Source: an uncultured bacterium (GTDB lineage: Bacteria > Patescibacteriota > Minisyncoccia > Phycocordibacterales > UBA5272). Taken from it: a stretch of DNA of 43,007 bases. The notes beneath the pieces were generated by a model, which was given only the letters and a program-made list of their open reading frames with translations, searched no databases and was not told where the DNA came from. Below, piece after piece: positions 2,729-43,007 of this stretch (position 1 is the stretch's first letter; the number at the start of each line of letters is the position of its first letter). Where the stretch lies: positions 1-43,007 of the forward strand of contig CAILKS010000022.1 of NCBI GenBank assembly GCA_903834855.1, in the 5' to 3' direction. The position numbers and the translations under genes were made by a program.

Positions 2729-5700
2729 ATGTTCATCCATCTCCGTAATCATACCCACTACTCCCTGCTCAAGGCCCTGCCAAAGGTGAAGGAACTTATT
2801 TCTGCTGCTAAAAATAATAAAATGGGATATGTTGCCATAACAGATTACAGTAACATGTACGGTACTATTGAATTTTTTTCAAAGTGTAAAAAGGAAAAAA
2901 TAAAACCAATAATTGGAGTTGAGTTCTCTCTTATTTTTAACGAAAGAACTTTCCAAACAATATTGATCGCTCGGACCTTAGAGGGGTACAAAAATTTAAT
3001 GAGAATAGTCTCGATTGTAAACGTAGATAATCCACTTAATCCAACCCTTAAAGAAGAGACTCTTGTAACTTACAAAAACGGCTTAACAGTTCTCTCTGGT
3101 GGTGTTAGTGGTGACATTAGTAATCTACTTGTAATAAATGAAAAAGATGCCGACTCACGACTTCTATTTTATAAAGAACATTTTGGTGATAATTTTTATC
3201 TAGAAATAAATCCACAAACTGGTATGGACCGTGGTGTTGAAATGCGCGATAAGACTATAGAGTATGCAAGAAAAACAAACACTCCCCTGGTGGCCACATT
3301 CAATACTCACTATATACATGATGCTGATAAAGCAGCTCATAAAACTCTTTACATGGTTCATGGAGATTTACATTCATCTGATGAATACAATCATCTGTTT
3401 CAAAAAGATTCATTTGCCTTTGTAGATACAGACACTGCTAAAAAAATATTTGCAGATACCCCTGACGCAATTTCAAATACTGTAAAAATTGCAGAAAGCT
3501 GCGAACTGGAAATCCCTCTTGGCGACTGGGTGTTTCCAAATATTGAACACAAGAAAAGTTACAATGAGGACTTAAGAGATCTAGCATACGAGGGTTTAGA
3601 AATTAGAAAAATGGAGTTAACTGATATTGTAAAAACTCGATTAGAGTATGAATTAAAAGTTATTGCAGATAAGGGTTATTCCCCTTATTTTTTGGTAGTT
3701 TATGACCTTTTACGATTTTCTCGAGAGAACGACATCCTCACAAACATTAGAGGTTCTGTTGCTGGTTCTTTGGTGACTTATCTTCTTAGAATTACAAAAT
3801 GCGATCCACTCGCATATAAACTTCCGTTTGAAAGATTCCTAAATCCTGAGAGACCTTCGGCACCGGACATCGATATGGATTATGCAGATACTCGTCGTGA
3901 TGAAGTTATTGATTATGCTCGTCGTAAATATGGAATAGATAATGTAGCTCAGATAGGAACATTCGGAACAATGATGGCACGTGGTGCTGTGAAAGATGTA
4001 GCTCGTGCAATGAAATATCCATACGTTGTTGGTGACCGTATTAGTAAATTAATTCCAATGCCAAAACAAGGATTCCCTGTGACTATAAAAGGTGCTCTAG
4101 AAGACATCCCAGAGCTTAAAGAATTGTATGACACAGACCGTGAGGTGCAAATAATTTTAGACATGGCACAAAAAGTTGAAGGATGTGCCAGACACATTTC
4201 CGTCCACGCTGCGGGAACAGTTATATCCCCTGCTCCACTTTGGGAATGGACACCTATACAAAAAGATCCAAAAGGTGGAAAAATAATTACTCAGTACGAT
4301 ATGTACACAATTGAAGATGCTGGACTGCTAAAGTTTGATTTTCTAGGAATTAGAAACTTAACCATATTGGGAGATGCGATTAAAATTGCAAAAGAAAATT
4401 ATAACATTGATGTAGATATAGAGGAGGTATCATTATCAGATGCAAAAACTTTTGAAATGTTATCTCGTGGCGAGACTATGGGATTATTCCAATTAAATGG
4501 TTCTGGTATGACAAGATTTTTGAAAGAACTAAAACCTAACGCTATCTTTGACATTAATGCCATGGTGGCCTTATATCGTCCTGGACCGCTAGAAATGATT
4601 CCTGAATACATAAGACGTAAACATGATCCATCACTCATCTCTTATCTTGACCCAAGACTAGAACAAATACTAGACCAATCTTTTGGAGTTATCGTCTACC
4701 AAGATGATGTTATGCTTATAGCCATTCATTTGGCTGGATATTCTTGGCTTGAGGCAGATAAATTACGTAAAGCTATGGGTAAAAAAATACCCGCAGAAAT
4801 GCAAGCGCAAAAAGAAAAACTATTAGCTGGATTCGTAGAGCATGGGCTGTCTGTAAAAAAGGGACAGAAGCTTTGGGAATTAATTGAGCCGTTTGCTGCA
4901 TATGGTTTTAACAAATGTTTAACTGGAGATACAAAAATTGCATCTGCAGAGACTGGCGAGATTCTAACAATAAGAGAAATATATTCCAATAATTTAAAAC
5001 CTAAATTATTAAGTTTGGGGAATGATGGCCTGCTTCAAAATAAAAAAATTACTGCAGTACTTGAAAATGGTATAAAAAATATTTATGAATTAAAAACTAG
5101 ATCTGGAAGAATAATTAGAGCAACGGGTAATCACCCTCTATTAACATTTAGTAAATGGAAAAATCTTGATGAAATTAAATCTGGTGAACGTATAGCCGTA
5201 CCCCGTAATTTATCGAGTCTAATCGGTAATGTAAAAGAAAAAGAAAAAGCTGCAATACTGGGATATTTAATATCAGAAGGTAATCTCTGCCACCCACATG
5301 GTATTTATTTCTATTCAACACAAGAAAATGAAATAAAAGATTTTATAAAAAATTGTAATAATTTCGAAAATTTTAAATATACATTAGATAAGAGTAAAGC
5401 TGCTACTTCTGTTTATTGTGGCCAAATAGACCAGAAAAAAGGAAATAATCTAAATAAGTGGGTTGAAAAACTAGGTCTAAAAAACAAAAAAGCTACAGAA
5501 AAAAATGTCCCCGATTGTGTCTTCAAATGGGACAAGGAAACTCTTTCTATTTTTATAGGAAAACTTTGGCAAGGTGATGGTTGTATCAGTATAAAAAATG
5601 AACAGGTATTTTATGCTACGAGTTCAAAAGTTCTAGCATATGACGTACAACATTTACTTTTAAGGTTTAGTATTTTATCTACAATTCATGAAAAGAAATT

Positions 5701-7225
5701 TAAATATAGAGGAGGAATAAAAATCGGATTTACTGTAGTAATTTCTCATAGAGAAAACTTACGTAAATTTAAAAGTACTATCGGTATGTATTTAATCGGT
5801 AAGAAAAAAGAAGATTTGAAAAAATTGCTCACGTTAACTGAAAATACTTTAGATATCTCTGCGAGAGGAACTAAGAATATTATACCAGCGGAAGTAATGA
5901 TACATATACGAAGGATAATGTTAGAAAAAAATGTCTCTGTTAAAAAAATATCTAAAGATACTGCTCTTTCGGAGAGATTATTCTCATATGATAAAAAGAA
6001 GACTGGCTATCAAAGAGCTGTAATAGAAAAGCTAGGAAAGTATTTAAAATCAAAGGAAATTTTACAAATCGCTAATAGTGATATTTATTGGGATGAGGTT
6101 GTTTCTATAAAAAAATCTGGTAAAGAAATGACTTATGACTTAACTATTCCACCTCATCATAACTTTGTTGCAAATGATATTATTGTTCACAATTCGCATG
6201 CTGCAAGCTATGGAAGAGTGGCGTACCAGACCGCTTATATGAAGGCAAACTTCCCTGTTGCATATATGACAGCAATCATGACTAACGAATCTGGTGATGT
6301 AGAGAAAATTGCTGAAATTGTTTCTGAATGTAAAAGAATGAATATAAAAGTTTTACCACCAAATGTAAATACTAGTGCAGGAGGGTTCTCCATCGTTCAA
6401 GAAGGAACAGAGAACGATGAATTTTCAATTTCTAATTTTCAATTTTCAAAAAATACAGAGACAAATGCAAACACAGATGCGGATGCGATTAGTAATAATA
6501 CAAGTAATGAAGAAATACTTTTCGGTTTGTATACAATTAAAAATCTTGGAGTCGATATATCAGATGCAATAATTGAAGAAAGAAACAAAAATGGAAAATA
6601 TAAATCTTTCGAAGATTTTATACTTCGTGTTACTCATAAAAATTTAAATAAAAAATCTCTAGAGGCATTAACTAAATGCGGAGCACTTGATGATTTAGTA
6701 GAACGTGGGGAAGTTTTAGCAAACTTAGAAAGTATTTTAGAATTTCATAAACATGTTGTAAAAGATAATGTGATGCAAGATAGTTTATTTGGAGGAATGG
6801 AGACTTCTTCTTTTGTTATGAAAAAAGCTCCCCCTGTTTCTCAAGAACAAAAACTTTCTTGGGAAAAAGATTTGCTTGGACTTTTCGTTTCTGGTTTTCC
6901 TCTTGACCCTTGGAAAGAAAAACTTGAAGCTCGAGGAATAGACATAACTAAAGTTCACCACGATACTCCTGATGGTAAAGAAGTTTCTCTGGGAGTCATA
7001 ATTGAAAATATAAAAATAACTATCACAAAAAAAGGTGACCAGATGGCTCTCGTCAAATTACGTGATTATAAAGGAACTATAGAAGTTGCTGTTTTTCCAG
7101 AAACTTACAAGAAATATAAATCACTACTTATAATAGATGTGCCACTTGTTGTTAGGGGGAAAGTATCGACTAGAAATGGTGAGAAGACTATAGCAATAGA
7201 TGAGGTTCGTAATTTACGACAGTAA
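2729..7225 (+). CDS. dnaE: DNA polymerase III alpha subunit (DnaE) interrupted by an intein
   Basis: N-terminal PHP motif (HLRNHTHYSLL), a GSVAGSLV-type palm, the FAAYGFNK|SHAASYGRVAYQTAYMKANFP fingers motif split by the intein, and a C-terminal OB-like region. Confidence 0.95.
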   Translation: MFIHLRNHTHYSLLKALPKVKELISAAKNNKMGYVAITDYSNMYGTIEFFSKCKKEKIKPIIGVEFSLIFNERTFQTILIARTLEGYKNLMRIVSIVNVDNPLNPTLKEETLVTYKNGLTVLSGGVSGDISNLLVINEKDADSRLLFYKEHFGDNFYLEINPQTGMDRGVEMRDKTIEYARKTNTPLVATFNTHYIHDADKAAHKTLYMVHGDLHSSDEYNHLFQKDSFAFVDTDTAKKIFADTPDAISNTVKIAESCELEIPLGDWVFPNIEHKKSYNEDLRDLAYEGLEIRKMELTDIVKTRLEYELKVIADKGYSPYFLVVYDLLRFSRENDILTNIRGSVAGSLVTYLLRITKCDPLAYKLPFERFLNPERPSAPDIDMDYADTRRDEVIDYARRKYGIDNVAQIGTFGTMMARGAVKDVARAMKYPYVVGDRISKLIPMPKQGFPVTIKGALEDIPELKELYDTDREVQIILDMAQKVEGCARHISVHAAGTVISPAPLWEWTPIQKDPKGGKIITQYDMYTIEDAGLLKFDFLGIRNLTILGDAIKIAKENYNIDVDIEEVSLSDAKTFEMLSRGETMGLFQLNGSGMTRFLKELKPNAIFDINAMVALYRPGPLEMIPEYIRRKHDPSLISYLDPRLEQILDQSFGVIVYQDDVMLIAIHLAGYSWLEADKLRKAMGKKIPAEMQAQKEKLLAGFVEHGLSVKKGQKLWELIEPFAAYGFNKCLTGDTKIASAETGEILTIREIYSNNLKPKLLSLGNDGLLQNKKITAVLENGIKNIYELKTRSGRIIRATGNHPLLTFSKWKNLDEIKSGERIAVPRNLSSLIGNVKEKEKAAILGYLISEGNLCHPHGIYFYSTQENEIKDFIKNCNNFENFKYTLDKSKAATSVYCGQIDQKKGNNLNKWVEKLGLKNKKATEKNVPDCVFKWDKETLSIFIGKLWQGDGCISIKNEQVFYATSSKVLAYDVQHLLLRFSILSTIHEKKFKYRGGIKIGFTVVISHRENLRKFKSTIGMYLIGKKKEDLKKLLTLTENTLDISARGTKNIIPAEVMIHIRRIMLEKNVSVKKISKDTALSERLFSYDKKKTGYQRAVIEKLGKYLKSKEILQIANSDIYWDEVVSIKKSGKEMTYDLTIPPHHNFVANDIIVHNSHAASYGRVAYQTAYMKANFPVAYMTAIMTNESGDVEKIAEIVSECKRMNIKVLPPNVNTSAGGFSIVQEGTENDEFSISNFQFSKNTETNANTDADAISNNTSNEEILFGLYTIKNLGVDISDAIIEERNKNGKYKSFEDFILRVTHKNLNKKSLEALTKCGALDDLVERGEVLANLESILEFHKHVVKDNVMQDSLFGGMETSSFVMKKAPPVSQEQKLSWEKDLLGLFVSGFPLDPWKEKLEARGIDITKVHHDTPDGKEVSLGVIIENIKITITKKGDQMALVKLRDYKGTIEVAVFPETYKKYKSLLIIDVPLVVRGKVSTRNGEKTIAIDEVRNLRQ
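4916..6193 (+). mobile_element. Intein (426 aa) with a LAGLIDADG homing-endonuclease domain, inserted in DnaE between ...YGFNK and SHAAS...
   Basis: It starts CLTGDTKI (block A), carries GNHPLL (block B) and two LAGLIDADG-like motifs (AAILGYLISEGNL and IFIGKLWQGDGCI), and ends NDIIVHN followed by a +1 Ser. The extein junction restores the conserved GFNKSHA motif. Confidence 0.85.
6422..6456 (+). repeat. Family-A heptad tract inside dnaE (TTTTCAA TTTCTAA TTTTCAA TTTTCAA AAAATAC)
   Basis: CAATTTTCAAAAAATACAGA (20 nt) is identical to the reverse complement of intergenic copy 22961-23006, and 19 of these nt recur in copy 7436-7474. It is translated as ...FSISNFQFSKNT... Confidence 0.7.
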
Positions 7226-7235
7226 ATTAGGGACT

Positions 7236-7480
7236 TCGTCTTAATTTTCAAGTATCAATTTTCAATTTTCAAGTAGATACAATCAGGGAACCAAAATTTC
7301 CAATTATCAATTTTCAATTTTAAAGTAAACATAATACGGAAACATGCATTTTTTGAAAATTTATAATTCTCTTGTTATTTATCGTATTTTTATTGCGTTT
7401 TTTGAAAATTGATAAACAAAATTATTTTGGTATTTCCTGTATTTTTTGAAAATTGAAAATTGGAAATTGAAAATTATTTT
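7236..7480. repeat. Cluster of family-A heptad tracts in both orientations (TTTTCAA-type at 7244-7274 and 7297-7323; TTGAAAA-type at 7349-7360, 7399-7413 and 7444-7474)
   Basis: Direct reading of the dnaE-secG spacer. Confidence 0.75.
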
Positions 7481-11517: not shown

Positions 11518-11564
11518 AGATTGGAGAATGGGAAATTTTATACTTTTGTAAATTATAGTTACAA

Positions 11565-11656
11565 AAGGTCTAAGGTCTAATTTCTAATTCACCTAATGGA
11601 ATGCGGGTGCTAAAGTATTTTTATTAGACCTTAGAAATTAGGTTAATTAGGCCTTG
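11565..11656. mobile_element. 92-bp MITE-like palindromic element flanked by a perfect 17-bp direct repeat (GTAAATTATAGTTACAA at 11548-11564 and 11657-11673)
   Basis: The termini AAGGTCTAA ... TTAGGCCTT are inverted, and the internal arms TCTAAGGTCTAAT / ATTAGACCTTAGA pair. A second copy lies at 39255-39352 in the opposite orientation, estimated by eye at 85% identity over about 80 nt. Confidence 0.6.
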
Positions 11657-12920: not shown

Positions 12921-13613
12921 ATGAAAACTATACAAGTTAAAATTGATGAGGTAACTCGTCTCAATAAATTCTTAAGCGAACAAGGTATTGTCTCTAGAAG
13001 AAATGCAGATGAGCTTATAAAAAATAAACTAGTAACAATTAATGAGAAAGTTGCTGTGCTTGGCGACAAAGTAAAAACTGGTGACATTGTTTCATTTAAA
13101 AAAATAGAAACACCTCTTACCTATGCTCTCTACTATAAACCTCGTGGAGAAATTACAGGAAGGATTCCAAGTCTTCCTGGATGCGAACCAATCGGAAGAC
13201 TAGATAAAGAAAGTGAAGGTCTACTTCTTTATACAAATGATTACAGGGTTGTAGATGCTGTACTTCACCCAATACACGCACGAGAAAAAGAATATGAAGT
13301 ACAAGTACGTGAAAAGACAACACCTCGAGTTGTTACATTACTTAAGCGTGGTATAAAAACTCAAGAAGCTACTTATTCCCCTGTTAAAAGTGTTCAAATA
13401 TATGGAGAAGGACGCAGTATTCGTATTATTATTACCGAAGGAAAAAAACATGAGATTCGCAGAATGTTAAACGCTCTTAACTTAACAGTGCTATCTCTTA
13501 AGCGAGTTCGTATTATGTCTTTTGTATCTCACGGATTGAAAGCTGGTACACCACATATATTAAGTCCAAAACAAAAAGAAACTTTATTGAAAGACTGTGG
13601 AGTAGAGGGATAA
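12921..13613 (+). CDS. Pseudouridine synthase, RsuA/RluB family, with an S4 domain
   Basis: An S4-like N-terminus (RLNKFLSEQGIVSRRNADELI), the catalytic GRLDKESEGLLLYTND motif, and KEYEVQV and GKKHEIRRM. Confidence 0.85.
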   Translation: MKTIQVKIDEVTRLNKFLSEQGIVSRRNADELIKNKLVTINEKVAVLGDKVKTGDIVSFKKIETPLTYALYYKPRGEITGRIPSLPGCEPIGRLDKESEGLLLYTNDYRVVDAVLHPIHAREKEYEVQVREKTTPRVVTLLKRGIKTQEATYSPVKSVQIYGEGRSIRIIITEGKKHEIRRMLNALNLTVLSLKRVRIMSFVSHGLKAGTPHILSPKQKETLLKDCGVEG

Positions 13614-13719
13614 TATTCAATGAAACAATATTCAATAATTAATGAAGCATTCATATTGTATTATTAAATGTATATTATCTCTATTCTAATTATATATTGA
13701 GTATTGTTTCATTGAATAT
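13613..13719. repeat. 25-bp inverted repeat (1 mismatch) with a 57-nt spacer, immediately after the stop codon of the pseudouridine synthase gene
   Basis: ATATTCAATGAAACAATATTCAATA (13613-13637) pairs with TATTGAGTATTGTTTCATTGAATAT (13695-13719). Confidence 0.75.
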
Positions 13720-13799
13720 TTATTGCGTCTGTATCTTCGTGTCTGTTTAAATATTGAATATTAAAAAACATTGAATATTTTGAGTATTCTCAACATGTG

Positions 13800-14160
13800 A
13801 ATAACTCTCTTGTCTAGCCCTTGAGTATAACTTGTGGTTTGATACACTAATTAGTAGACAGTTGTTTCATTATCAGCTTTTAGTACCAGGAAAGAACATT
13901 AATAAGTTCTTGAAGTCTATGAGATGAGATTGGACTTATAAACCGATCTCGTCTATGCCGATAAAAAAGCAGATGCGGCTTCAAACAACTGGAAGTAACA
14001 TATTCTAAAGTTTGAAAAAGTTTTGGAAGAATTGCTAACAATAAAAACGGAAGCCTAAGAAGCAACCGCAACGCATCAAACAAAGACGTCGAATTTATTT
14101 AAAAAATAATTAAGACAAAACAGAAACCGCCATACTTACCAGAGGGGCGGTTTTTGTTTT
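13800..14160 (+). ncRNA. Candidate orphan transcript of unknown identity, ending in an intrinsic terminator
   Basis: No credible ORF on either strand, moderately raised GC, and it ends in the terminator at 14124-14160. The 5' end is not defined. Confidence 0.3.
14124..14160 (+). terminator. Intrinsic terminator (AAACCGCC-loop-GGCGGTTT followed by TTGTTTTTT)
   Basis: An 8-bp GC-containing stem followed by a T-tract on the plus strand. Confidence 0.6.
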
Positions 14161-14810
14161 TTATCCATATATTGCTCCATCTACTTCGCTATTAAAAATT
14201 TTTATTCCTGCGCCGTATATCTATATACGTCTTAGTCTTAAAAACTTTTAATAACTCGTATCTGAAACAATATCTGAATAAAAAATATAGTTGGTCTACT
14301 TTGTCGTGGGTCCCTGCCGACTTCGCAAGCGGTGCGGTAACTACGTCTCCTCGTTGGCCTTCCCGCGCCGCGTATTTGTCGCTGTAAAAAAGTAACTACG
14401 AGTTTTGTTTTTATCCATGCCTTGTATCTATCAGTTTATAAAAAACAAAGAATTAGATTTTGCCTAAGACGCATCTGCTTCGTTAGAAAGAAATTTTATT
14501 TTGGCTAGCGAGGAGTTAAATAAAAAAGTAATCTTTTATATTTAATCCGAGCGACGACAAAAAACTCTTTCGTCAACGTACTACTTGTACGTCTCCTCAT
14601 AAAATTTCTTTCTGCCTTGCATCTATCGTCTTATGCAAACAAAAGTTTGGATTTAATCGCAAAAATTTCCTGCGCCTCGTCTCTGTATCCTTATAAAAAA
14701 GAAACTGTGTGAGCCTCGTATCTATTGTCTTATACAAACAAAGGTTTGGATTTAATTACAAAAAATTTCTGCGCCTTGCATCCGTCGTCTTATGCCAACA
14801 AAAAAGTTAT
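14161..14810. repeat. Degenerate tandem array, about 9 copies of a ~35-nt unit (consensus approx. CTGCGCCTYGYATCTATCGTCTTATRCAAACAAAAAG), including a ~100-bp tandem duplication (14611-14710 vs 14711-14810)
   Basis: Units start near 14208, 14255, 14362, 14417, 14461, 14611, 14668, 14711 and 14768. The interspersed word GTTTGGATTTAATYRCAAAAA occurs twice. Confidence 0.7.
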
Positions 14811-14889
14811 CTAAAAATATAATAAAAAATAGCTATGATAAAAGGTAACCCGAGTATTAGTGAAATTAATTTTTTATCTGGTTCAGTCA

Positions 14890-14925
14890 TTTTTTTGAAA
14901 ATTGATAATTGATAATTGATAATTA
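14890..14925 (+). repeat. Family-A heptad tract (TTTTTTGAAAATTGATAATTGATAATTGATAATTA)
   Basis: Direct reading. It abuts the 3' end of the minus-strand Ddl-like gene. Confidence 0.75.
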
Positions 14926-14940
14926 CTCATTTATCCTAAA

Positions 14941-15876
14941 TTAATGATTATTTATAAATGAGTGCACGTATTGCCCTAAATTTACCCCTGTTGTTGCTAA
15001 TGATTGCAAGAAACGTCCGTCCTTTGAAAGCGACGGCTTAACATCGACATTAATGACCATATAGCCGTCTTTGTATGGGATCATGTCAATTAACGCATGA
15101 CCTGAAAGGGCAAGCGCTTCATAGGCAGATTCTGCCGCTTTACGTATAGCCTCATTCTCTTCTTCCCCTGCTTTAAATACTGCTCTCATTGGATGATCTT
15201 TCCTCGGTATAGATTTTAACGGAGCAAAAGTTTCCACAGCAAGTGGAGTGTACAGTTTATTTCCTCTAAATTTTGGAAGTACGGCAATGGATAAAGTTCT
15301 TGTGGGTTTATATGTAAATATATGAACATCTATATTATCATTATGATAATCAGCTAAAACTTTTTCTAAGTCTGTATATTGACGAACTAAAACTGATTCA
15401 TGTTCTCTATCTTTTTTAAGAGGCCTTACCATAAGTGGCGTGTGGAAAGTATTCCATACTGTTCTAAAAGTTTCTTTTGGTGTTTCTGTGTTTGCTCTTA
15501 CAACTAATGTTTTTGGAGTTGGTAATCCATGCTGACGAAACAGCCTATACATATCTTCTCTGTCTAACGTTATAGAATCATCATGAGAAAGAAGTAGCGG
15601 TATCCACATTTTTTTAGCAAGCTCTCTATGTGGTGCTTCTATATCTTGTGTTGTGTCGACAACATAATCAGCAATTGTAAAAACATAATGAGCATCTGTT
15701 GGTCTTCCTTTCATCGTCCAATTACCATCAACATCAATTAAAATATCGAGTGGCTCATATCCAATTCCCGTTAAAGAACGCAAAATATCTTGACCGTCTA
15801 AGAGAGACTGATTTGAATTAATCGTACCTCCACGAATGACTGCAATAATGTATGGAATAGCCGCTGTTGAATTCAT
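14941..15876 (-). CDS. D-alanine--D-alanine ligase-like ATP-grasp protein (divergent)
   Basis: The Ddl-like order of blocks is IIAVIRGGTINSNQSL..., LDREDMYRLFRQHGLPTP, PLMVRPLKK..., ALIDMIPYKDGYMVINVDVKPS. The start is moved to the ATG at 15876 (MNSTAAIPY) because TGCTATACT lies 6 nt upstream. Confidence 0.55.
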   Translation of the reverse strand: MNSTAAIPYIIAVIRGGTINSNQSLLDGQDILRSLTGIGYEPLDILIDVDGNWTMKGRPTDAHYVFTIADYVVDTTQDIEAPHRELAKKMWIPLLLSHDDSITLDREDMYRLFRQHGLPTPKTLVVRANTETPKETFRTVWNTFHTPLMVRPLKKDREHESVLVRQYTDLEKVLADYHNDNIDVHIFTYKPTRTLSIAVLPKFRGNKLYTPLAVETFAPLKSIPRKDHPMRAVFKAGEEENEAIRKAAESAYEALALSGHALIDMIPYKDGYMVINVDVKPSLSKDGRFLQSLATTGVNLGQYVHSFINNH

Positions 15877-15882
15877 GATTAT

Positions 15883-15891
15883 AGTATAGCA
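15883..15891 (-). promoter_or_regulatory. Extended -10 (TGCTATACT), 6 nt upstream of the Ddl-like ATG
   Basis: The minus strand reads TGCTATACT-ataatc-ATG. Confidence 0.45.
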
Positions 15892-15989
15892 AAAATAGGT
15901 TTTAGGTTGTAGGTGATAGGTTGTAGAAACTGAAAAATACACAGACTTGCTAATTTAATATACATTTATTAAAATAAAGTTCTCTACGT

Positions 15990-16129
15990 ATTATTTTCAT
16001 GTCGCCGTAAGACTTCCCATTACGCTGTTTCATGGATAATAAGGCTAAGGTATGCCAACTAATGGGTCGTAGCCTACTGACTACCTGTGACTGGCGGGAG
16101 ATTTAATCTCCCGACCAGTTTTCTTTTTA
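15990..16129 (+). ncRNA. Candidate small structured transcript (or 24-codon micro-ORF) ending in a strong intrinsic terminator
   Basis: Local GC rise and the hairpins CGTAA...TTACG and GGCTA...TAGCC. The terminator CTGGCGGGAGAT-tta-ATCTCCCGACCAG plus TTTTCTTTTT lies at 16091-16129. No plus-strand gene follows. Confidence 0.35.
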
Positions 16130-16147
16130 ACTAATAACCAATATATA

Positions 16148-16185
16148 AAAATACAGGTGGCCACTTCGTGGCCACCTGTATTTAC
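16148..16185. terminator. Perfect palindromic hairpin AAAATACAGGTGGCCAC-TTCG-GTGGCCACCTGTATTTT-type, a bidirectional terminator downstream of the FKBP gene
   Basis: A 14-17 bp stem with a TTCG loop and A/T runs on both sides. The 34-nt core is identical to 25849-25882. Confidence 0.8.
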
Positions 16186-16216
16186 TTTCAACTTTATGGA
16201 CTTTATAAACTTTTGA

Positions 16217-16747
16217 CTACTTGCCTACTTTCAAAAGTTCTACTTCAAAAATCAAATCTGAATTAGCTGGAATAGCTCCATTACCCATATCCTGCGCTCC
16301 ATATCCAAGAGCTGCTGGTATCGCCAAAATTCTCTTACCACCAACTTTCATACCCTCGACACCCATATCCCATCCTTTTATAACCTGACCACCACCTAAA
16401 GTAAATGTAAATCCTGTATCACCATGATTCTTAGATGCATCAAAGATTTTACCATTTGTTAAAGCTCCAACATATTGAACAGTAACACTATCTCCTTTTT
16501 TAGCTACAGCACCAGTACCCACTACTTCATCTTTTAATTGAAGATCTGTTAATGGTGCTATTGGTGTTGATGTTGCCACGGTTGTTGTTGAATTATTTGT
16601 TGTAACTGATTCTTCCTTTACCTCAGCAGTAACTTCTGTGTTAGTTTCTGCTACTTCAGGTTTATCCTGTTTAGTCATTTGTGTAAATAACATGCCTAAA
16701 GCCACTAATACAACCACGACAATAATTCCTATATTTGTTGATTTCAT
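16217..16747 (-). CDS. FKBP-type peptidyl-prolyl cis-trans isomerase, membrane-anchored
   Basis: GDSVTVQYVGALTNGKIFDAS ... FTLGGGQVIKGWDMGVEGMKVGGKR ... LIFEVELLKV, plus an N-terminal TM helix. Confidence 0.85.
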   Translation of the reverse strand: MKSTNIGIIVVVVLVALGMLFTQMTKQDKPEVAETNTEVTAEVKEESVTTNNSTTTVATSTPIAPLTDLQLKDEVVGTGAVAKKGDSVTVQYVGALTNGKIFDASKNHGDTGFTFTLGGGQVIKGWDMGVEGMKVGGKRILAIPAALGYGAQDMGNGAIPANSDLIFEVELLKVGK

Positions 16748-16860
16748 ATTTTATTAATTTTTAATTTCTAATTTTATTTTATTTTAACACGGACAACTAT
16801 CTTGTTCAAAGAAACTTTATTTATTTTCTATCATATTATTTTAATTTTTAAGCTTTCAGT

Positions 16861-16965
16861 TTTGGATGAATTTCGAGGCGTCGAGTGTGCAAGCATGGAA
16901 ACGTACTATGGCGTACGTTGAGATGCGAGCACACGATGACAACAAAGAAATTCGCCAAAAATGGA
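16861..16965. repeat. Family-B palindromic element B1 (~105 bp), centre ACGTAC-tatggc-GTACGT, ends TTTGGATGAATTTC / GAAATTCGCCAAA
   Basis: The two arms were compared by eye. Confidence 0.65.
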
Positions 16966-16978
16966 AGCTATATTATTT

Positions 16979-17095
16979 TCTAAAGAAATTGGATGCAGTA
17001 CGAGGAGCCCAGGAATTTTTCGAGGAGACGTACTAACGTGTACGTTGACGAGAAAAATTACGTAGCGACAAAGTAATGCGCCAATTTCTTTAGAA
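16979..17095. repeat. Family-B palindromic element B2 (117 bp) with perfect 15-bp terminal inverted repeats (TTCTAAAGAAATTGG / CCAATTTCTTTAGAA) and centre GAGGAGACGTAC-taacgt-GTACGTTGACGAG
   Basis: Direct reading. It abuts the nrdB stop codon at 17098. Confidence 0.75.
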
Positions 17096-17097
17096 AA

Positions 17098-18132
17098 CTA
17101 CCAAGAGAGGGTACCGCCAGTCTTATACTCAGTAACCCTAGTCTCAAAGAAATTCTTCTCCTTCGACAAGTCTATAGCCTCACTCATCCATGGGAATGGA
17201 TTCTCTGACCCATAAACTGCCGGCAATCCTACTGCATTTAATCTTCTATCTGCAATATGTTCAGTATATTTTCTAAACCCTTCTGCATTCATACCAAAAA
17301 TACCTTTAGGGAAAACTGTAATAGCAAATTCATATTCTAATTCAACAGCTCTCTTCATTAAATTAGTTATACGCTCTTGAAATTCTGCTGTCCATAATTC
17401 TGGCTGTTCTTCTTTTATTGTGTTTATCATAAACACACCAAAGTTTAAATGGTTAGACTCATCACGCATAATATATTGTATCTGCTCAGCACTCGCAGTC
17501 ATTTTATTTTGTCTTTGAAGACCAAACATTACAGCAAATGATGAATAGAAGAATAATCCTTCCATTATAAGAGAGAATACACACATATTTTCAAGGAACT
17601 TTTGATCATTCTCAAATGTTCCTGTGTGAAAATTATCATCAAAAATACCTTCATTAAGCGAAAGAACTAAATTATCTTTGTTATAAATAGCAGCCTTCTC
17701 ACGATACATGTTGAATATTTTTCCCTGATCAAGACCAAGGGACTCCACAATATATTGATATGAATGCGTGTGTATCGCCTCTTCATATCCCTGACGAAGA
17801 AGATACATTCTCACCTCTGGTGATGTGATGTGCTTATAGAATGCGAGCACAACATTATTAGCAGCTAATGAATCAGCGGTAGAGAAGAATCCTAACACTG
17901 TTTCAAAAGCATCTCTTTCATCTTGCGTTAAAACATCTTTTGCCTTCCATTGCTCTATATCTCTCTGCATAGAGATTTCTGTTGGCAACCAATGATTTGC
18001 ATTTGCTGCCAAGTAAGTATCCCAAGCATAAGTATGCTTCATAGGATACAACTGCATAACATCAGCGTCTTTCCCGTTTATTATTTTTCTTTGATTTATG
18101 TCCACTTTTTCTGTGGTCGGTGTTATTGGCAT
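17098..18132 (-). CDS. nrdB: Class Ia ribonucleotide reductase beta subunit (R2)
   Basis: Ferritin-like di-iron motifs (EEAIHTHSY, MRDESNHL), W..TEI...D...W at the N-terminus, and a 344-aa length. Confidence 0.9.
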   Translation of the reverse strand: MPITPTTEKVDINQRKIINGKDADVMQLYPMKHTYAWDTYLAANANHWLPTEISMQRDIEQWKAKDVLTQDERDAFETVLGFFSTADSLAANNVVLAFYKHITSPEVRMYLLRQGYEEAIHTHSYQYIVESLGLDQGKIFNMYREKAAIYNKDNLVLSLNEGIFDDNFHTGTFENDQKFLENMCVFSLIMEGLFFYSSFAVMFGLQRQNKMTASAEQIQYIMRDESNHLNFGVFMINTIKEEQPELWTAEFQERITNLMKRAVELEYEFAITVFPKGIFGMNAEGFRKYTEHIADRRLNAVGLPAVYGSENPFPWMSEAIDLSKEKNFFETRVTEYKTGGTLSW

Positions 18133-22917: not shown

Positions 22918-22965
22918 TAATTAAAACGTAAAAAGTAGTCTTAACTGCAAGATACATCCAATGTC

Positions 22966-23006
22966 TGTATTTTTTGAAAATTGATAATTGATAATTGATA
23001 ATTAAT
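22966..23006 (+). repeat. Family-A heptad tract (CTGTATTTTTTGAAAATTGATAATTGATAATTGATAATTAA)
   Basis: Direct reading. It lies just beyond the uvrA stop. Confidence 0.8.
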
Positions 23007-25724: not shown

Positions 25725-25762
25725 TATATTTTGAAAATTGATACTTGAAAATTGATAATTAA
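25725..25762 (+). repeat. Family-A heptad tract (TATATTTTGAAAATTGATACTTGAAAATTGATAATTAA)
   Basis: Direct reading. Confidence 0.75.
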
Positions 25763-25848: not shown

Positions 25849-25882
25849 AGTAAATACAAATACAGGTGGCCACTTCGTGGCC
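25849..25882. terminator. Second copy of the ACAGGTGGCCAC-TTCG-GTGGCCACCTGT hairpin, with flanking heptad arms (CAGATTA CAGAAAC CAGACGA / inverted)
   Basis: The 34-nt core is identical to 16150-16183. It lies downstream of the 25956 gene on the minus strand. Confidence 0.75.
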
Positions 25883-25955
25883 ACCTGTATTTCTGTTATC
25901 TGTAATCTGTGTCTTCTCTCCCCTCTTAACTCTTTCCTTTATCTTCTATCTACCC

Positions 25956-33652: not shown

Positions 33653-34336
33653 ATGAATAGATTACCTGACAAGGCCAGGTTCATGGAAGAACTTGGCAAT
33701 AATAGAAAAGTGAAAGAAGAAGACAAAATAATTCTAAATACAGTCTACGAATTCAGTCTTCTTCATCATTTAAATGCACCCAAAAGAGCAACTGGGGAAC
33801 ATTATTTCTGGCATATATATCGTGCCGTAATGAGAATGCTTGACGTCTTTGAACTTCTTGGAATCTGGGACGTTAGAGTTGTAATAATTTTACTACTTCA
33901 CGACACGATTGAAGACGCTAGAGATGCAGGTTTTGACCCAGCTCTTGTATTAACAGAAATAGCACGTAAATTTGACGATGAAACAGCCTTCGGAACCATG
34001 GCTATAACAAAAAAAGAGAAAGAGCATTCCAAAGATGTTCTAAAAAAACTTATATTGTTATTCTATTGGCGTTCACATGCTGCAAAAGCTTTTGATCGAG
34101 AAGATAATCTCTCAACTTTACATGGAATGGAAATACCTTCTCAGCTAAAAAAATTAGCTGAGACTGAAAAATATTTCCCTGCAATTTTCAATCGACTGGA
34201 AGCAGAACTTACAATTGCTGTTAAGTATCGCGGTTACGATAAAAACTGGCTAAATCTTACTCCATTGTTACGAATAAGGCAAAAAAAGCTAGTAATAGAA
34301 AACCGAGCCCGACTCAAAGCTTTGGGAATTACGTAA
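33653..34336 (+). CDS. HD-domain protein related to the RelA/SpoT (p)ppGpp hydrolase domain (small alarmone hydrolase-like)
   Basis: GEHYFWHIYRAV ... LLLHDTIEDA ... KAFDREDNLSTL. There is no synthetase domain. Confidence 0.65.
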   Translation: MNRLPDKARFMEELGNNRKVKEEDKIILNTVYEFSLLHHLNAPKRATGEHYFWHIYRAVMRMLDVFELLGIWDVRVVIILLLHDTIEDARDAGFDPALVLTEIARKFDDETAFGTMAITKKEKEHSKDVLKKLILLFYWRSHAAKAFDREDNLSTLHGMEIPSQLKKLAETEKYFPAIFNRLEAELTIAVKYRGYDKNWLNLTPLLRIRQKKLVIENRARLKALGIT

Positions 34337-34372: not shown

Positions 34373-34439
34373 AAAAAACTAATAAAATCACTTCATCTAC
34401 TTTTTGTCCACGACATGAATCTGTTGATTCAGCTACGGA

Positions 34440-34515
34440 ATTTTTCTCAGTCGTCGTACTAGATGTACGCCTTCTTTAAAAAATTCCTAGGCTCCTCGTA
34501 TCTGAAGCAATTTTA
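34440..34515. repeat. Family-B repeat copy (GTCGTCGTAC-tagat-GTACGCCTTC ... AAAAAATTCCTAGGCTCCTCGTATCTGAAGC)
   Basis: It aligns by eye with 14570-14625 and with the reverse complement of 16985-17051. Confidence 0.6.
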
Positions 34516-34521
34516 TTAATC

Positions 34522-35667
34522 TTAAACTTTCACTGTCTCTGCTATGGTAGATACCAATTCCTTATCAAACATCGTCGGTAATATCATTTCCTTCGTTGGA
34601 TTTTTCACGTGGCTAGCTAGTGCAAGTGCTGCACGTGTAAACATACTAATATCAAATTGTTTTATATTATTATCAAGCACACCTTTAAATAACCCAGGGA
34701 AAATAAGAGAATTGTTTAACTGATTCGGAAAATCACTTCGTCCGGTTGCTATAACTGCCACACCGGCTTCACGTGCGACTTCTGGCATAATTTCAGGTAT
34801 TGGATTTGCAAGTGCAAAAACAATAGAATCTTTATTCATACTCTGTGCCATTTCTTTTGTAAGAGCTCCTGCTTTTGAAACACCAACAAATACATCAGCA
34901 CCGACTACAGCATCCATCAAAGTTCCTACTCCACCTTTTAAATTACTTTTTGAAATTAATTCTAATTTTTCTTTTGTTAAATCTTCACGACCTTCATGTA
35001 TAATTCCTTTACTATCGCAAAATAAAATATTTGAAAATCCATATGAAAGTAAAATACGTGAAATTGCCACGCCAGCCGAACCAACACCATTAACTACAAT
35101 TTTTATATCTTTTCCTTCACCTCTATTAGTAACTTTTAATGCATTTATAATTCCACCCAAAACAACTGTCGCTGTACCCCATTGATCATCGTGCATTACA
35201 GGAATATTTAATTCCGCACGCAACCTTTCTTCAATTTCAAAACATCTAGGTGCTGCAATATCTTCTAAATTAACCGCACCAAAAACTGGAGCCAACTGTT
35301 TAACGGCTTTTATAATTTCTTCTGTATTTTGTGTCTCTAAACAAATTGGAAAAGCGTCCACTCCAGCAAAACTTTTTAAAATTGCAGCCTTACCTTCCAT
35401 GACAGGAATAGCCGCTAGTGCCCCTAAGTTTCCAAGTCCTAAAATAGCTGATCCATCGGAAATAATTGCGACTGTATTCCGTTTCAAAGTATATTCACGT
35501 GCAAGTGATGGGTCACGCGCAATTTCTTTACATACTTCAGCAACCCCAGGAGTATAAGCACGGGACAAATCATCTCTGTCATTCATAGGAACTTTTGTAT
35601 TAAGTTCAATTTTTCCGTGATGTAATTTATGAAGTTCTAAGGCTTCTTTATTGTAATCGTGAGTCAT
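34522..35667 (-). CDS. NAD(P)-dependent malic enzyme (short, MaeB N-terminal type)
   Basis: LSRAYTPGVAEVC, AIISDGSAILGLGNLG, VMEGKAAILKSFAGVDAFPI, VNGVGSAG. Confidence 0.9.
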   Translation of the reverse strand: MTHDYNKEALELHKLHHGKIELNTKVPMNDRDDLSRAYTPGVAEVCKEIARDPSLAREYTLKRNTVAIISDGSAILGLGNLGALAAIPVMEGKAAILKSFAGVDAFPICLETQNTEEIIKAVKQLAPVFGAVNLEDIAAPRCFEIEERLRAELNIPVMHDDQWGTATVVLGGIINALKVTNRGEGKDIKIVVNGVGSAGVAISRILLSYGFSNILFCDSKGIIHEGREDLTKEKLELISKSNLKGGVGTLMDAVVGADVFVGVSKAGALTKEMAQSMNKDSIVFALANPIPEIMPEVAREAGVAVIATGRSDFPNQLNNSLIFPGLFKGVLDNNIKQFDISMFTRAALALASHVKNPTKEMILPTMFDKELVSTIAETVKV

Positions 35668-38099: not shown

Positions 38100-38318
38100 T
38101 TTAGTAAACGTCAGCCTAGTCAGAAATTAGATGAGATACGCCGTTGATTTTTGAAAAATATTTTAGCTTGTACGTTAAAAACTACGTCAGCCGAGCCAAA
38201 ATTTGGATGGAATCCGAAGTTGTTTTGCAAAAAAAGTTTGGAGATGTACTGACTTATACATTGAAACACTTTTTTTGTAAAACGACGAGGAGTACGCCAA
38301 ATAGTGGCTCGGTGTTTC
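38100..38318. repeat. Family-B mosaic repeat copies (ATTTGGATGGAATCCG, GTACGTTAAAAACTACGTCAGCCGAG, ACGACGAGGAGTACGCC)
   Basis: It shares words with 14500-14660 and 16861-17095. The supplied ORFs here (38120..38440 and others) are spurious. Confidence 0.55.
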
Positions 38319-39209
38319 TTACTTACTGTAAAGCTCCATCTTGGAGCGTACAACCTTGGACATCTCCTCTTGCCCCATCTTCCCAAACTTATAAGGTGCA
38401 ACCTCAAGTGGATTTTCATCCATATATTCTTTTTCACCATCGCGGAAAGCTTTACGAATTTCTGTATTTATGTGAACAATAGCAATTCCGGCATCAATTG
38501 CCTTAATTAAATCTTCATCAGTGTTTCCACTCGCTCCATGAAGTACAAGAGGTACATCAACTGCGCGAGAAATATCACTTAATCTATCTATATGAAGTGC
38601 TGGCTCTACAGCATTAATTAACATGCCATGAACATTTCCAATAGCTGGTGCGAACATATCAATACCAGTTCTTAAAATAAAATCTTTTGCTTGTTCTTTT
38701 GTTGTTAAATTTTCTTCACTTACTCCCTCAGGCAATGATTCATTAAGTGATGATGACTGTCCAATATATCCAAGCTCTGCTTCTACCAAAACTTTTTTTC
38801 CAGTTTTTGCTTCATAATTTCTCACGTAATCCACACATTTTTTAACCAAAGCCACATTTTCTTCATATGGTAATTTCGCACCATCTACAATTACACTGTC
38901 ATATCCAGCTTCTACGACTTCAACTACTTTATTAAAAGAATATGTGTGATCAGCATTTAAAAAAACTGCCACATTATATTCTTCATTTAATTCATCAACA
39001 ATTTTTCTTATCATATCTACCCCCATATAATTTCTCTCACCTTCACTCGCTCCAATTATCACTGGCTGACCTAATTCTTCTGCGACTTCTACTATCGCAC
39101 GCGCCTGATCCAGATTTGAAATATTAAAATGAGCGATAGCCTTACCTGCCTGTTTATATTCATGTATCATTTCAAAATAAACTTCTGATTGTGGAACTAA
39201 TGACTTCAT
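38319..39209 (-). CDS. fba: Class II fructose-bisphosphate aldolase
   Basis: AIAHFNISN, FLNADHT, VEAELG, PLVLHGASG. Confidence 0.9.
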   Translation of the reverse strand: MKSLVPQSEVYFEMIHEYKQAGKAIAHFNISNLDQARAIVEVAEELGQPVIIGASEGERNYMGVDMIRKIVDELNEEYNVAVFLNADHTYSFNKVVEVVEAGYDSVIVDGAKLPYEENVALVKKCVDYVRNYEAKTGKKVLVEAELGYIGQSSSLNESLPEGVSEENLTTKEQAKDFILRTGIDMFAPAIGNVHGMLINAVEPALHIDRLSDISRAVDVPLVLHGASGNTDEDLIKAIDAGIAIVHINTEIRKAFRDGEKEYMDENPLEVAPYKFGKMGQEEMSKVVRSKMELYSK

Positions 39210-39254: not shown

Positions 39255-39352
39255 ACCTAAAATATCTAATTACCTAATTTCTAAGGTCTAATAAAAATGC
39301 ATTAGTATCTGTATTCTATTAGGTCAATTAGATATTAGGCCTTAGACCTTTT
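39255..39352. mobile_element. Second copy (inverted orientation) of the MITE-like hairpin element seen at 11565-11656
   Basis: The reverse complement aligns with 11563-11650: GGTCTAAGG(Y)CTAAT.TCTAATT.ACCTAAT.GAAT...TTTTTATTAGACCTTAGAAATTAGG. Confidence 0.6.
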
Positions 39353-42945: not shown

Positions 42946-42951
42946 GAAATA

Positions 42952-42983
42952 CAATTTTCAATTTTCAATTTTCAATTTTCAAA
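42952..42983 (-). repeat. Family-A heptad tract, (TTTTCAA)x4 on plus = (TTGAAAA)x4 on minus, directly upstream of the transketolase promoter
   Basis: Direct reading. Confidence 0.8.
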
Positions 42984-43007
42984 GTGGATACGAAATACCT
43001 TAATAAT

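Follow-up and report, generated by a model that had tools for sequence, protein, structure and literature searches.

A structured palindromic repeat family anchored at gene ends in an ultra-small Patescibacteria genome

Introduction

Two adjacent palindromes fill the spacer behind nrdB in the stretch of DNA analysed here, and the core of one of them recurs elsewhere in the same stretch. Do they belong to a dispersed family, and if so, what kind of element is it, which of its strands matters, and how does it come to stand where it does? We addressed these questions in the window, by which we mean the whole stretch of 43,007 nucleotides, in the genome from which it comes (G000), and in the relatives of that genome. 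G000 comprises 687,869 bp (~0.69 Mb) and is 97% complete, and the window is its contig C22. The NrdA encoded in the window shares 95% identity with its counterpart in a "Candidatus Nomurabacteria" MAG, and its further near relatives are also Patescibacteria. The nrdB gene was assigned to positions 17098-18132 of the minus strand (ORF list; Pfam Ribonuc_red_sm, 1.7e-83). Its TAG stop codon lies at 17098-17100 on the minus strand, and the element array starts 2 nt downstream of it in the mRNA sense.

Results

Copies of the element in the window and in the genome

The core, AGACGTAC-N4-6-GTACGTTG, was found to be the apex of an imperfect palindrome of 125 to 135 nt, so that the sizes of ~105 and 117 bp given in the initial annotation understate the unit. 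A relaxed pattern of the core matched 33 sites in G000, which, once turned to a common orientation, could be aligned over ~130 nt. A covariance model built from 30 genomic copies gave 60 matches at 58 loci, six of them in the window, and these occupy ~1.1% of the genome. The dispersed family (family B) proposed in the initial annotation is thus real; its "5 or more" loci understated the 58 found genome-wide.

One full copy, el2, lies on the plus strand at 16976-17097 (model span 16970-17101; 97.7 bits, E=1.9e-17). The 15-bp terminal inverted repeat noted previously, TTCTAAAGAAATTGG (16978-16992) and CCAATTTCTTTAGAA (17081-17095), is indeed perfect and extends to a perfect outer stem of 17 bp, TTTTCTAAAGAAATTGG / CCAATTTCTTTAGAAAA. 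The predicted RNA fold of el2 was -35.5 kcal/mol on the plus strand versus -23.1 kcal/mol on the minus strand; the plus strand is the purine-rich and better-folding one, and its 3' end adjoins the nrdB stop codon. The second full copy, el1, is arranged in tandem with el2 on the same strand at 16861-16966 (model span 16843-16969; 73.2 bits) and folds at -43.6 kcal/mol (z=-7.8). It represents a sub-type in which a regular helix, UGAAUUUC/GAAAUUCG, takes the place of the basal tandem-G.A loop, and its relatives of the same sub-type were found at C25:4856 and C70:5498.

Another full copy lies on the minus strand at 14155-14289 (82.9 bits), and its 3' end overlaps the T-tract of what reads as a plus-strand intrinsic terminator (~14128-14165). 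A truncated or chimeric copy, in which the 3' arm is replaced, follows on the minus strand at 14517-14643 (42.6 bits) and carries a perfect core, GAGGAGACGTACAAGTAGTACGTTGACGA. The recurrence of the core in reverse orientation near 14570, as claimed before, was exact: GAGGAGACGTAC-AAGTA-GTACGTTGACGA occupies 14570-14598 on the minus strand, and dinucleotide shuffles gave an expectation of 0.00 matches. The shorter pattern ACGTAC-N3-8-GTACGT occurred three times in the window versus 0.01 expected. Half a core, ACGTCTCCTCG, stands isolated at 14320-14360, in agreement with the half-site reported at 14335-14355. Two tandem 81-nt fragments at 14614-14800, which are 80% identical and contain one arm only (GCCTYGYATCT...; repeat family D7), belong to the element debris of a 1.3-kb non-coding region.

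The diverged sites reported at ~34.45 kb and ~38.2 kb were both scored by the covariance model as degenerate copies. The copy at 34373-34523 (minus strand, 45-56 bits) is ~25 nt longer than usual and forms the inverted repeat I17 with el2; it lies in the convergent spacer between an ORF at 33653-34336 (plus strand) and a malic-enzyme gene at 34522-35667 (minus strand). The copy at 38184-38317 (plus strand) is weak and decayed (27 bits, E=0.003). It is antisense to a class-II aldolase gene (38319-39209, minus strand), and its 3' end directly adjoins the stop codon of that gene.

The 1.3-kb non-coding region spans 13620-14940 and is packed with whole, truncated and half copies of family B. It is possibly the replication terminus, because gene orientation and GC skew change sign there. 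An unannotated region of ~350 nt within it ends in the plus-strand terminator at ~14128-14165, and the searches for tRNA, tmRNA and Rfam families gave no match in 13620-14940.

Other repeats were also observed in the window. An unrelated second family consists of heptad arrays (GAAAATT/GATAATT) at 2040-2250, 2660-2700, 6417-6458, 7240-7480, 14890-14925, 22965-23005, 25725-25760 and 42950-43007, often upstream of gene starts and once inside dnaE. The dnaE gene (2729-7225) holds a full intein, with the NCBIfam N- and C-terminal splicing regions matching residues 730-1156. An inverted pair of 81 nt (I1; 11563-11643 and 39272-39352, 88% complementary, 27.6 kb apart) belongs to another dispersed family. 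Identical GC-rich palindromes of 35 nt, AAATACAGGTGGCCACTTCGTGGCCACCTGTATTT, at 16149-16183 and 25858-25892 resemble bidirectional terminator hairpins and stand behind different genes.

Hairpin anatomy and conserved blocks

RNAalifold and the covariance model agreed on one long hairpin with a single apex. Across 83 copies drawn from more than five genomes, standard pairs made up 96.1% of the pair cells, compared to 66.1% after shuffling and 36-45% when the partners were slid, and 27 of the 33 pairs showed changes on both sides. As read from the outside in, a copy would begin with an A/T-rich outer stem of 10 to 25 bp specific to that copy, followed by a conserved symmetric loop with UAGAU in both arms, which could form tandem G.A pairs. 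A 3-bp stem, UAC/GUA alternating with UGC/GCA, would then lead to a conserved asymmetric loop (RAGGC / RACNNA), two covarying middle stems and a conserved purine-rich loop (GAGGAG / UUGACGAG). The predicted apical stem is ACGUAC/GUACGU, closed by a loop of 4 to 6 nt. The pairing of the outer 10 to 25 bp was perfect within a copy, and the sequence differed among copies.

Four blocks were conserved on the purine-rich strand, namely UAGAURCRAGGC on the 5' arm, RACRMAGYAGAUGA on the 3' arm, and GGAGACGUAC and GUACGUUGAC, which flank the apex. The columns beside these blocks alternate between C-G, U.G and U-A, and the apical G.U is replaced by G-C in copies from other classes of the phylum. The initial annotation had held that the conserved flanks cannot pair. 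Judging from the sequence and from the covariation of G.U with G-C and A-U, however, block is predicted to lie opposite block on the purine-rich strand, with A-U, G.U and tandem G.A/A.G oppositions. The observation that the flanks are conserved beyond what a generic hairpin needs held up, since the internal blocks are kept even in other classes of the phylum. This conservation far beyond hairpin need argues for specific recognition. The mosaic character of the family was likewise borne out, as the outer stem AAGTCAGAAATTG occurred with at least three different inner modules. A bulged K-turn was considered and rejected, because the covariation favours a symmetric tandem-G.A helix with no 3-nt bulge.

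Distribution across genomes

Within the genus, 50 of 52 genomes had copies, and the number scored per genome ranged from 0 to at least 33. Other genera of the same family had copies in 1 of 8 genomes, other families of the order in 11 of 40, and a phylum-wide sample in 5 of 150. A single match was obtained among the 2.9 million viral contigs of IMG/VR, and carriage by phages was rejected on this ground. None of the 4227 Rfam families matched the window at the gathering score, and a search over 13600-17200 at E<=5 placed nothing on the elements. Our literature search found no description of such an element in CPR bacteria.

Position and orientation at gene ends

Copies begin 0 to 15 nt past the stop codon, or on it. 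With its 3' end, the purine-rich strand abuts the stop codon of an oppositely oriented gene in 40 of the 58 copies of G000, 18 of 31 in the relative G014, and 29 of 39 on a 775-kb contig of the independent species G041 (abutting meaning within 25 nt of the stop codon, often overlapping it, with crude ORF calls as gene calls). In total, the stop-abutting copies of the three genomes comprised 87 antisense and 3 sense copies, the latter all in G000. The non-abutting copies of G000 are mostly inner members of tandem arrays. Because most genes are co-oriented with replication, the gene rule and the replication rule were tested against each other at head-on genes, for which the GC-skew profile of G041 yielded a clean origin and terminus. 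The adjoining copies were antisense to the gene in eight of eight cases (four in G041, four in G000), and an orientation set by replication was therefore rejected. In the convergent spacers of G000, the element adjoined the gene to which it is antisense in 14 of 14.

The anchor can be described as the end of a transcription unit, since the copy at 14155-14289 abuts the terminator of a non-coding transcript. A canonical terminator is the next feature in the mRNA sense for ~25% of the copies, giving the order stop codon, element, terminator. Such copies form part of the 3' UTR, where the transcript carries the reverse complement of the purine-rich strand. In either direction the 5' outer arm is rich in A and the 3' outer arm rich in U, a pattern shared with bidirectional terminators. 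Copies survive almost exclusively in the handful of bases that separate the end of a transcription unit from the following signal.

Strand asymmetry

The purine-rich strand formed the more stable structure in 125 of 128 copies (-54.0 vs -41.4 kcal/mol), and an uninterrupted helix of at least 20 bp was found for 22 copies on the antisense strand versus 3 on the mRNA-sense strand. We also counted mismatches in a strand-neutral alignment of arm against arm, using isolated transitions with two Watson-Crick pairs on each side. The in-helix transitions were of the G.U type on the purine-rich strand in 94 cases and of the A.C type in 19, and the bias recurred in each genome (42:10 in G000, 18:2 in G014 and 34:7 in the independent species G041). 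The GC skew, with G exceeding C on the coding strand, predicts a mismatch bias opposite to that observed, which indicates that the asymmetry reflects selection. Base pairing is preferentially preserved on the strand complementary to the mRNA. The asymmetry can be read in two ways, either as pairing preserved on the antisense strand or as pairing disfavoured in the mRNA.

The idea that the core marks a small RNA found no backing, as there was no sign of a dedicated small-RNA gene and no promoter motif was enriched upstream. Such a gene is unlikely because the extended -10 motif TGnTAnnnT pointing into the element occurred in 19 of 126 flanks with no preferred distance and no enrichment. Promoter-like sites at the elements showed no excess over shuffles.

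Turnover between relatives

We compared G000 with G014, which is ~91% identical to it across nrdAB, over 324 kb. Whole hairpins, including the private outer stem, were present in one genome and absent from the other, in both directions. In six pairs of filled and empty sites, the insertions lay in A/T runs (TTA|TTTC, ATTAAT|TTTT; for example gatgtTA|TTTCagt). These pairs revealed no consistent target duplication, and their low-complexity flanks would permit duplications of 2 to 5 nt. In two insertions the ORF loses its last few codons, and its new stop codon comes from the element.

Thirteen sites were occupied in both genomes. Four of these pairs were 91-100% identical, and two were 82% identical with compensated changes. 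At C17:8292 and the orthologous site in G014 (C3:4390), the inner module alone differs, and this pair shows eight double changes and no broken pairs. The remaining 7 of the 13 shared sites hold a different family member (51-62% identity) at the same place and in the same orientation. The clearest exchange was found between C44:4767-4900 and C1:4430-4563 of G014, where the flanks are 98.5% and 99.7% identical wherever they can be aligned and continue unchanged up to the base of the hairpin. The element behind nrdB was present in the window, L005 and L001, weak in L007, and absent in L002 and L004, which have spacers of 45 to 47 nt. The hairpin with its private outer stem is thus inserted, deleted or exchanged as one unit.

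Stop-codon anchoring, fixed antisense orientation, a strand-asymmetric fold and cassette-like turnover are the main features of the family, and all four were missing from the initial annotation of the repeats.

Search for a cognate enzyme

G000 encodes three paralogous Y1/HUH (Y1_Tnp) proteins, at C49:1222-1848 (L082, minus strand), C53:1-672 (L080, minus strand) and C33:1386-1772 (L081, plus strand). In NCBIfam they match the REP-associated tyrosine transposase best, with scores below threshold (24-44 bits vs a cut-off of 80). Each gene is bracketed by its own GC-rich hairpin, such as TCTAGGCCGGACCTAG...CTAGGTCCGGCCTAGA on both sides of the C49 gene, and the three look like separate IS200/REP-type units unrelated to family B. 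Several genomes that carry 27 to at least 33 copies had no Y1 gene, and Y1 genes occurred in genomes free of the element. The suggestion that a RAYT- or IS200-like transposase mobilises the elements found no support, given the different hairpins of the Y1 genes and the lack of correlation between their presence and copy number across 60 relatives.

Two tyrosine recombinases were found in G000. The one at C11:269-1240 (L149, plus strand) is absent from all of 100 relatives and probably marks a strain-specific integrated element; it was dropped as a candidate mobiliser on account of being unique to G000. A TnpB zinc-ribbon and a reverse transcriptase were searched for in G000 and not found, and 1.8 Mb from three genomes contained no autonomous copy with its arms split by an ORF. 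The Nop and Tas families gave no match in G000 (PF01798, PF02371), with ParTasR reaching just E=0.07, on RecJ. L7Ae (PF01248) was not found in this genome either.

Discussion

Family B is a large, old and structured repeat family, which is anchored at gene ends and undergoes fast gain, loss and replacement. Several described repeats resemble it in part. The ERIC (IRU) elements of Enterobacteria are imperfect palindromes of ~127 bp in transcribed intergenic DNA, and family B shares with them the size, the single long imperfect hairpin, the placement in 3' UTRs or intergenic DNA, the variable copy number among relatives, and the absence of an encoded protein and of a known transposase. The two are unrelated in sequence, however. 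ERIC has one full-length consensus and occurs in both orientations, whereas family B has four short shared blocks and is ~97% antisense when it abuts a stop codon. The Correia (NEMIS) elements of Neisseria carry family-wide terminal inverted repeats of 26 bp, a TA target duplication and an IHF site. They are similar to family B as hairpin insertions of 100 to 155 bp that are co-transcribed with their neighbours and have stems relevant to RNase III. In contrast to Correia elements and classical MITEs, the outermost 8 to 12 bp of family B differ from copy to copy with no family-wide terminal inverted repeats, and no IHF site and no consistent TA target duplication were seen. Family B also differs from the Rickettsia palindromic elements, since it is intergenic or clips the last codons and shows no in-frame insertion within genes. 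On the best reading, family B is uncatalogued, with a lifestyle like that of REP, ERIC and Correia elements and membership in none of those families. No described repeat family explains its combination of position, turnover and antisense-fold pattern.

The explanation that we favour, with a probability of roughly one half, is that family B is a non-coding mobile palindromic gene-end cassette, which a host factor handles through its structure and which is kept only in the orientation that spares the mRNA. Recognition would take place on the antisense strand while it is single-stranded, through the structure of the element and its four conserved blocks. A protein encoded by the host rather than by the element would be responsible and may cut or join at the base of the hairpin. 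Such an action would explain the non-conserved ends, the lack of an evident target duplication and the lack of a co-varying transposase. The opposite orientation would be purged by selection, as it would place a continuous helix stabilised by G.A and G.U pairs in the mRNA directly after the stop codon. A helix of this kind is a likely substrate of RNase III and a likely obstacle to the ribosome or to RNA polymerase. In the tolerated orientation, the mRNA would carry a weaker hairpin broken up by pyrimidine loops, possibly a protective structure for its 3' end.

Several points weigh against the cassette. The single-stranded intermediate is purely inferred, our searches identified no mobilising protein, and no process is known to us by which the template strand of a gene would become single-stranded DNA in a gene-anchored manner. 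The mismatch asymmetry could equally reflect selection against pairing in the mRNA-sense RNA. The conservation of the blocks across classes and the orthologous copies that are 99-100% identical would also fit a host function, and the replacement at the same site could in part be old polymorphism combined with recombination in the flanks.

A host function could take two forms, and neither is mutually exclusive with mobility. The first, which we regard as unlikely, is a polar RNA element directed against antisense transcription in a genome without Rho. Spurious or divergent transcripts running back into the 3' end of a gene would fold as the purine-rich hairpin. Their fate would be termination, owing to an A-rich arm, a structured core and a U-rich arm, cleavage by RNase III, or both. 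The sense mRNA, with its interrupted hairpin, would read through or be protected, and copies would spread because they are useful. This proposal accounts for the gene-anchored antisense orientation and for the asymmetry of the fold, including the uninterrupted helices of at least 20 bp (22 antisense vs 3 mRNA-sense). It also agrees with the convergent spacers of G000, where the element lies against the gene to be shielded in 14 of 14, and with the gene content, as no Rho homologue was found in this 97%-complete genome (best 38 bits vs a cut-off of 509) and RNase III is encoded. However, the element is dispensable, given that congeners have anywhere from 0 to ~60 copies, and in ~25% of the copies a canonical bidirectional terminator lies outside and would halt antisense transcripts first. 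Moreover, the mRNA-sense hairpin still reaches about -41 kcal/mol, so that polarity is not obvious, and intrinsic termination needs no conserved loops. The other form, to which we give somewhat less credence, is a 3'-UTR module that works in the sense orientation, with the hairpin flush with the stop codon. It would shield the message from 3' exonucleases or couple translation termination to the fate of the RNA; its pyrimidine-rich loops would bind something or repel RNase III, and the purine-rich fold would be a by-product. REP and ERIC elements act as 3'-UTR modules in sense mRNA and provide a precedent. The mRNA-sense RNA is the sole RNA certain to exist, at least 25% of the copies follow the order stop, element, terminator, and the anchoring extends to the ends of transcripts in general, even that of the non-coding transcript at 14155-14289. 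Nevertheless, such a module requires A.C to be favoured over G.U in the acting RNA (19 G.U vs 94 A.C), which is unusual for a structured RNA, and the alternation of C-G, U.G and U-A lies on the other strand.

Three further explanations invoke known enzyme systems. The elements might be attC-like sites folded from the bottom strand for a Xer- or IntI-like tyrosine recombinase. Integron attC sites and family B indeed have much in common, namely the location at gene 3' ends, the fixed orientation, the fold of the antisense strand, a conserved structure with variable sequence, and precise exchange at the site, to which the invariant AAC and the length of ~130 nt may be added. Yet R''/R' pairing (RYYYAAC / GTTRRRY) is absent in family B, as its AAC stands opposite AGG and has no complementary GTT partner. 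The elements are dispersed behind housekeeping genes with no cassette arrays, the exchanged and mobile unit is the hairpin itself and not a gene, and of just two tyrosine recombinases in G000 one is unique to this genome, all of which makes this account improbable. A REPIN/REP population moved by a RAYT (Y1 HUH) transposase is more doubtful again and by now largely refuted. The three Y1_Tnp genes, with REP-associated tyrosine transposase as their best match, would suit it, as would the fact that HUH enzymes work on hairpins in a single DNA strand; like REP/REPIN elements, family B consists of hairpin repeats behind genes that persist vertically in a lineage for a long time and have a strand-specific structure. 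REPINs, however, are two short inverted REPs with a conserved GTAG and rely on a co-inherited RAYT, whereas family B is one continuous hairpin of 130 nt that does not co-vary with RAYT-like genes. The Y1 scores of 24-44 bits against a family cut-off of 80, the unrelated hairpins of the Y1 genes, the genomes with 27 to at least 33 copies and no Y1, the element-free genomes with Y1, and an element orientation independent of replication all count against it. Least probable of all, and refuted for G000, is a stem-loop tigRNA guide or a box C/D-like K-turn RNA. Stem-loop TIGR-Tas systems, in which a terminal stem and a CUU motif are combined with a hairpin that separates two spacers, occur in CPR bacteria (PMC12045711; bioRxiv 10.64898/2026.09.09.750476). 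Family B resembles these tigRNAs in its CPR host, its variable palindromic terminal stem topped by conserved words and its middle hairpin; it has box-like words (AGAUGA/UAGA), and in the mRNA sense it reads stem, CUU, 13 nt, hairpin, 12 nt, stem. G000, however, has no Nop, Tas or L7Ae homologue. Instead of variable unpaired spacers of 8 to 12 nt, the "spacer" positions are conserved and pair together, with UAC/GUA alternating with UGC/GCA, and the copies are dispersed behind housekeeping genes rather than arrayed by a tas gene.

Taking the cassette and the polar RNA element together, we offer tentatively, as a proposal that we hold to be rather unlikely, that the hairpins are substrates of an as yet unknown structure- and strand-specific DNA (or RNA) transaction at the ends of transcription units in ultra-small bacteria without Rho. 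They would then be either cassettes that a host enzyme cuts and pastes, resembling attC sites in logic although no integron is involved, or polar insulators through which antisense transcripts are destroyed and the sense mRNA is spared.

For practical purposes, an unannotated family of this kind causes contig breaks, false ORF extensions and altered C-termini in MAGs, and its conserved core would be a handy lineage marker. The minimal genomes of Patescibacteria leave hardly any room for junk, and yet ~1% of this one consists of a single hairpin family, whose turnover outpaces that of the sequence around it and whose placement and orientation follow strict rules. Knowing the acting strand and the recogniser would reveal either a novel form of DNA mobility that needs neither conserved ends nor a transposase of its own or a cis-acting device that manages transcript ends in organisms without Rho.
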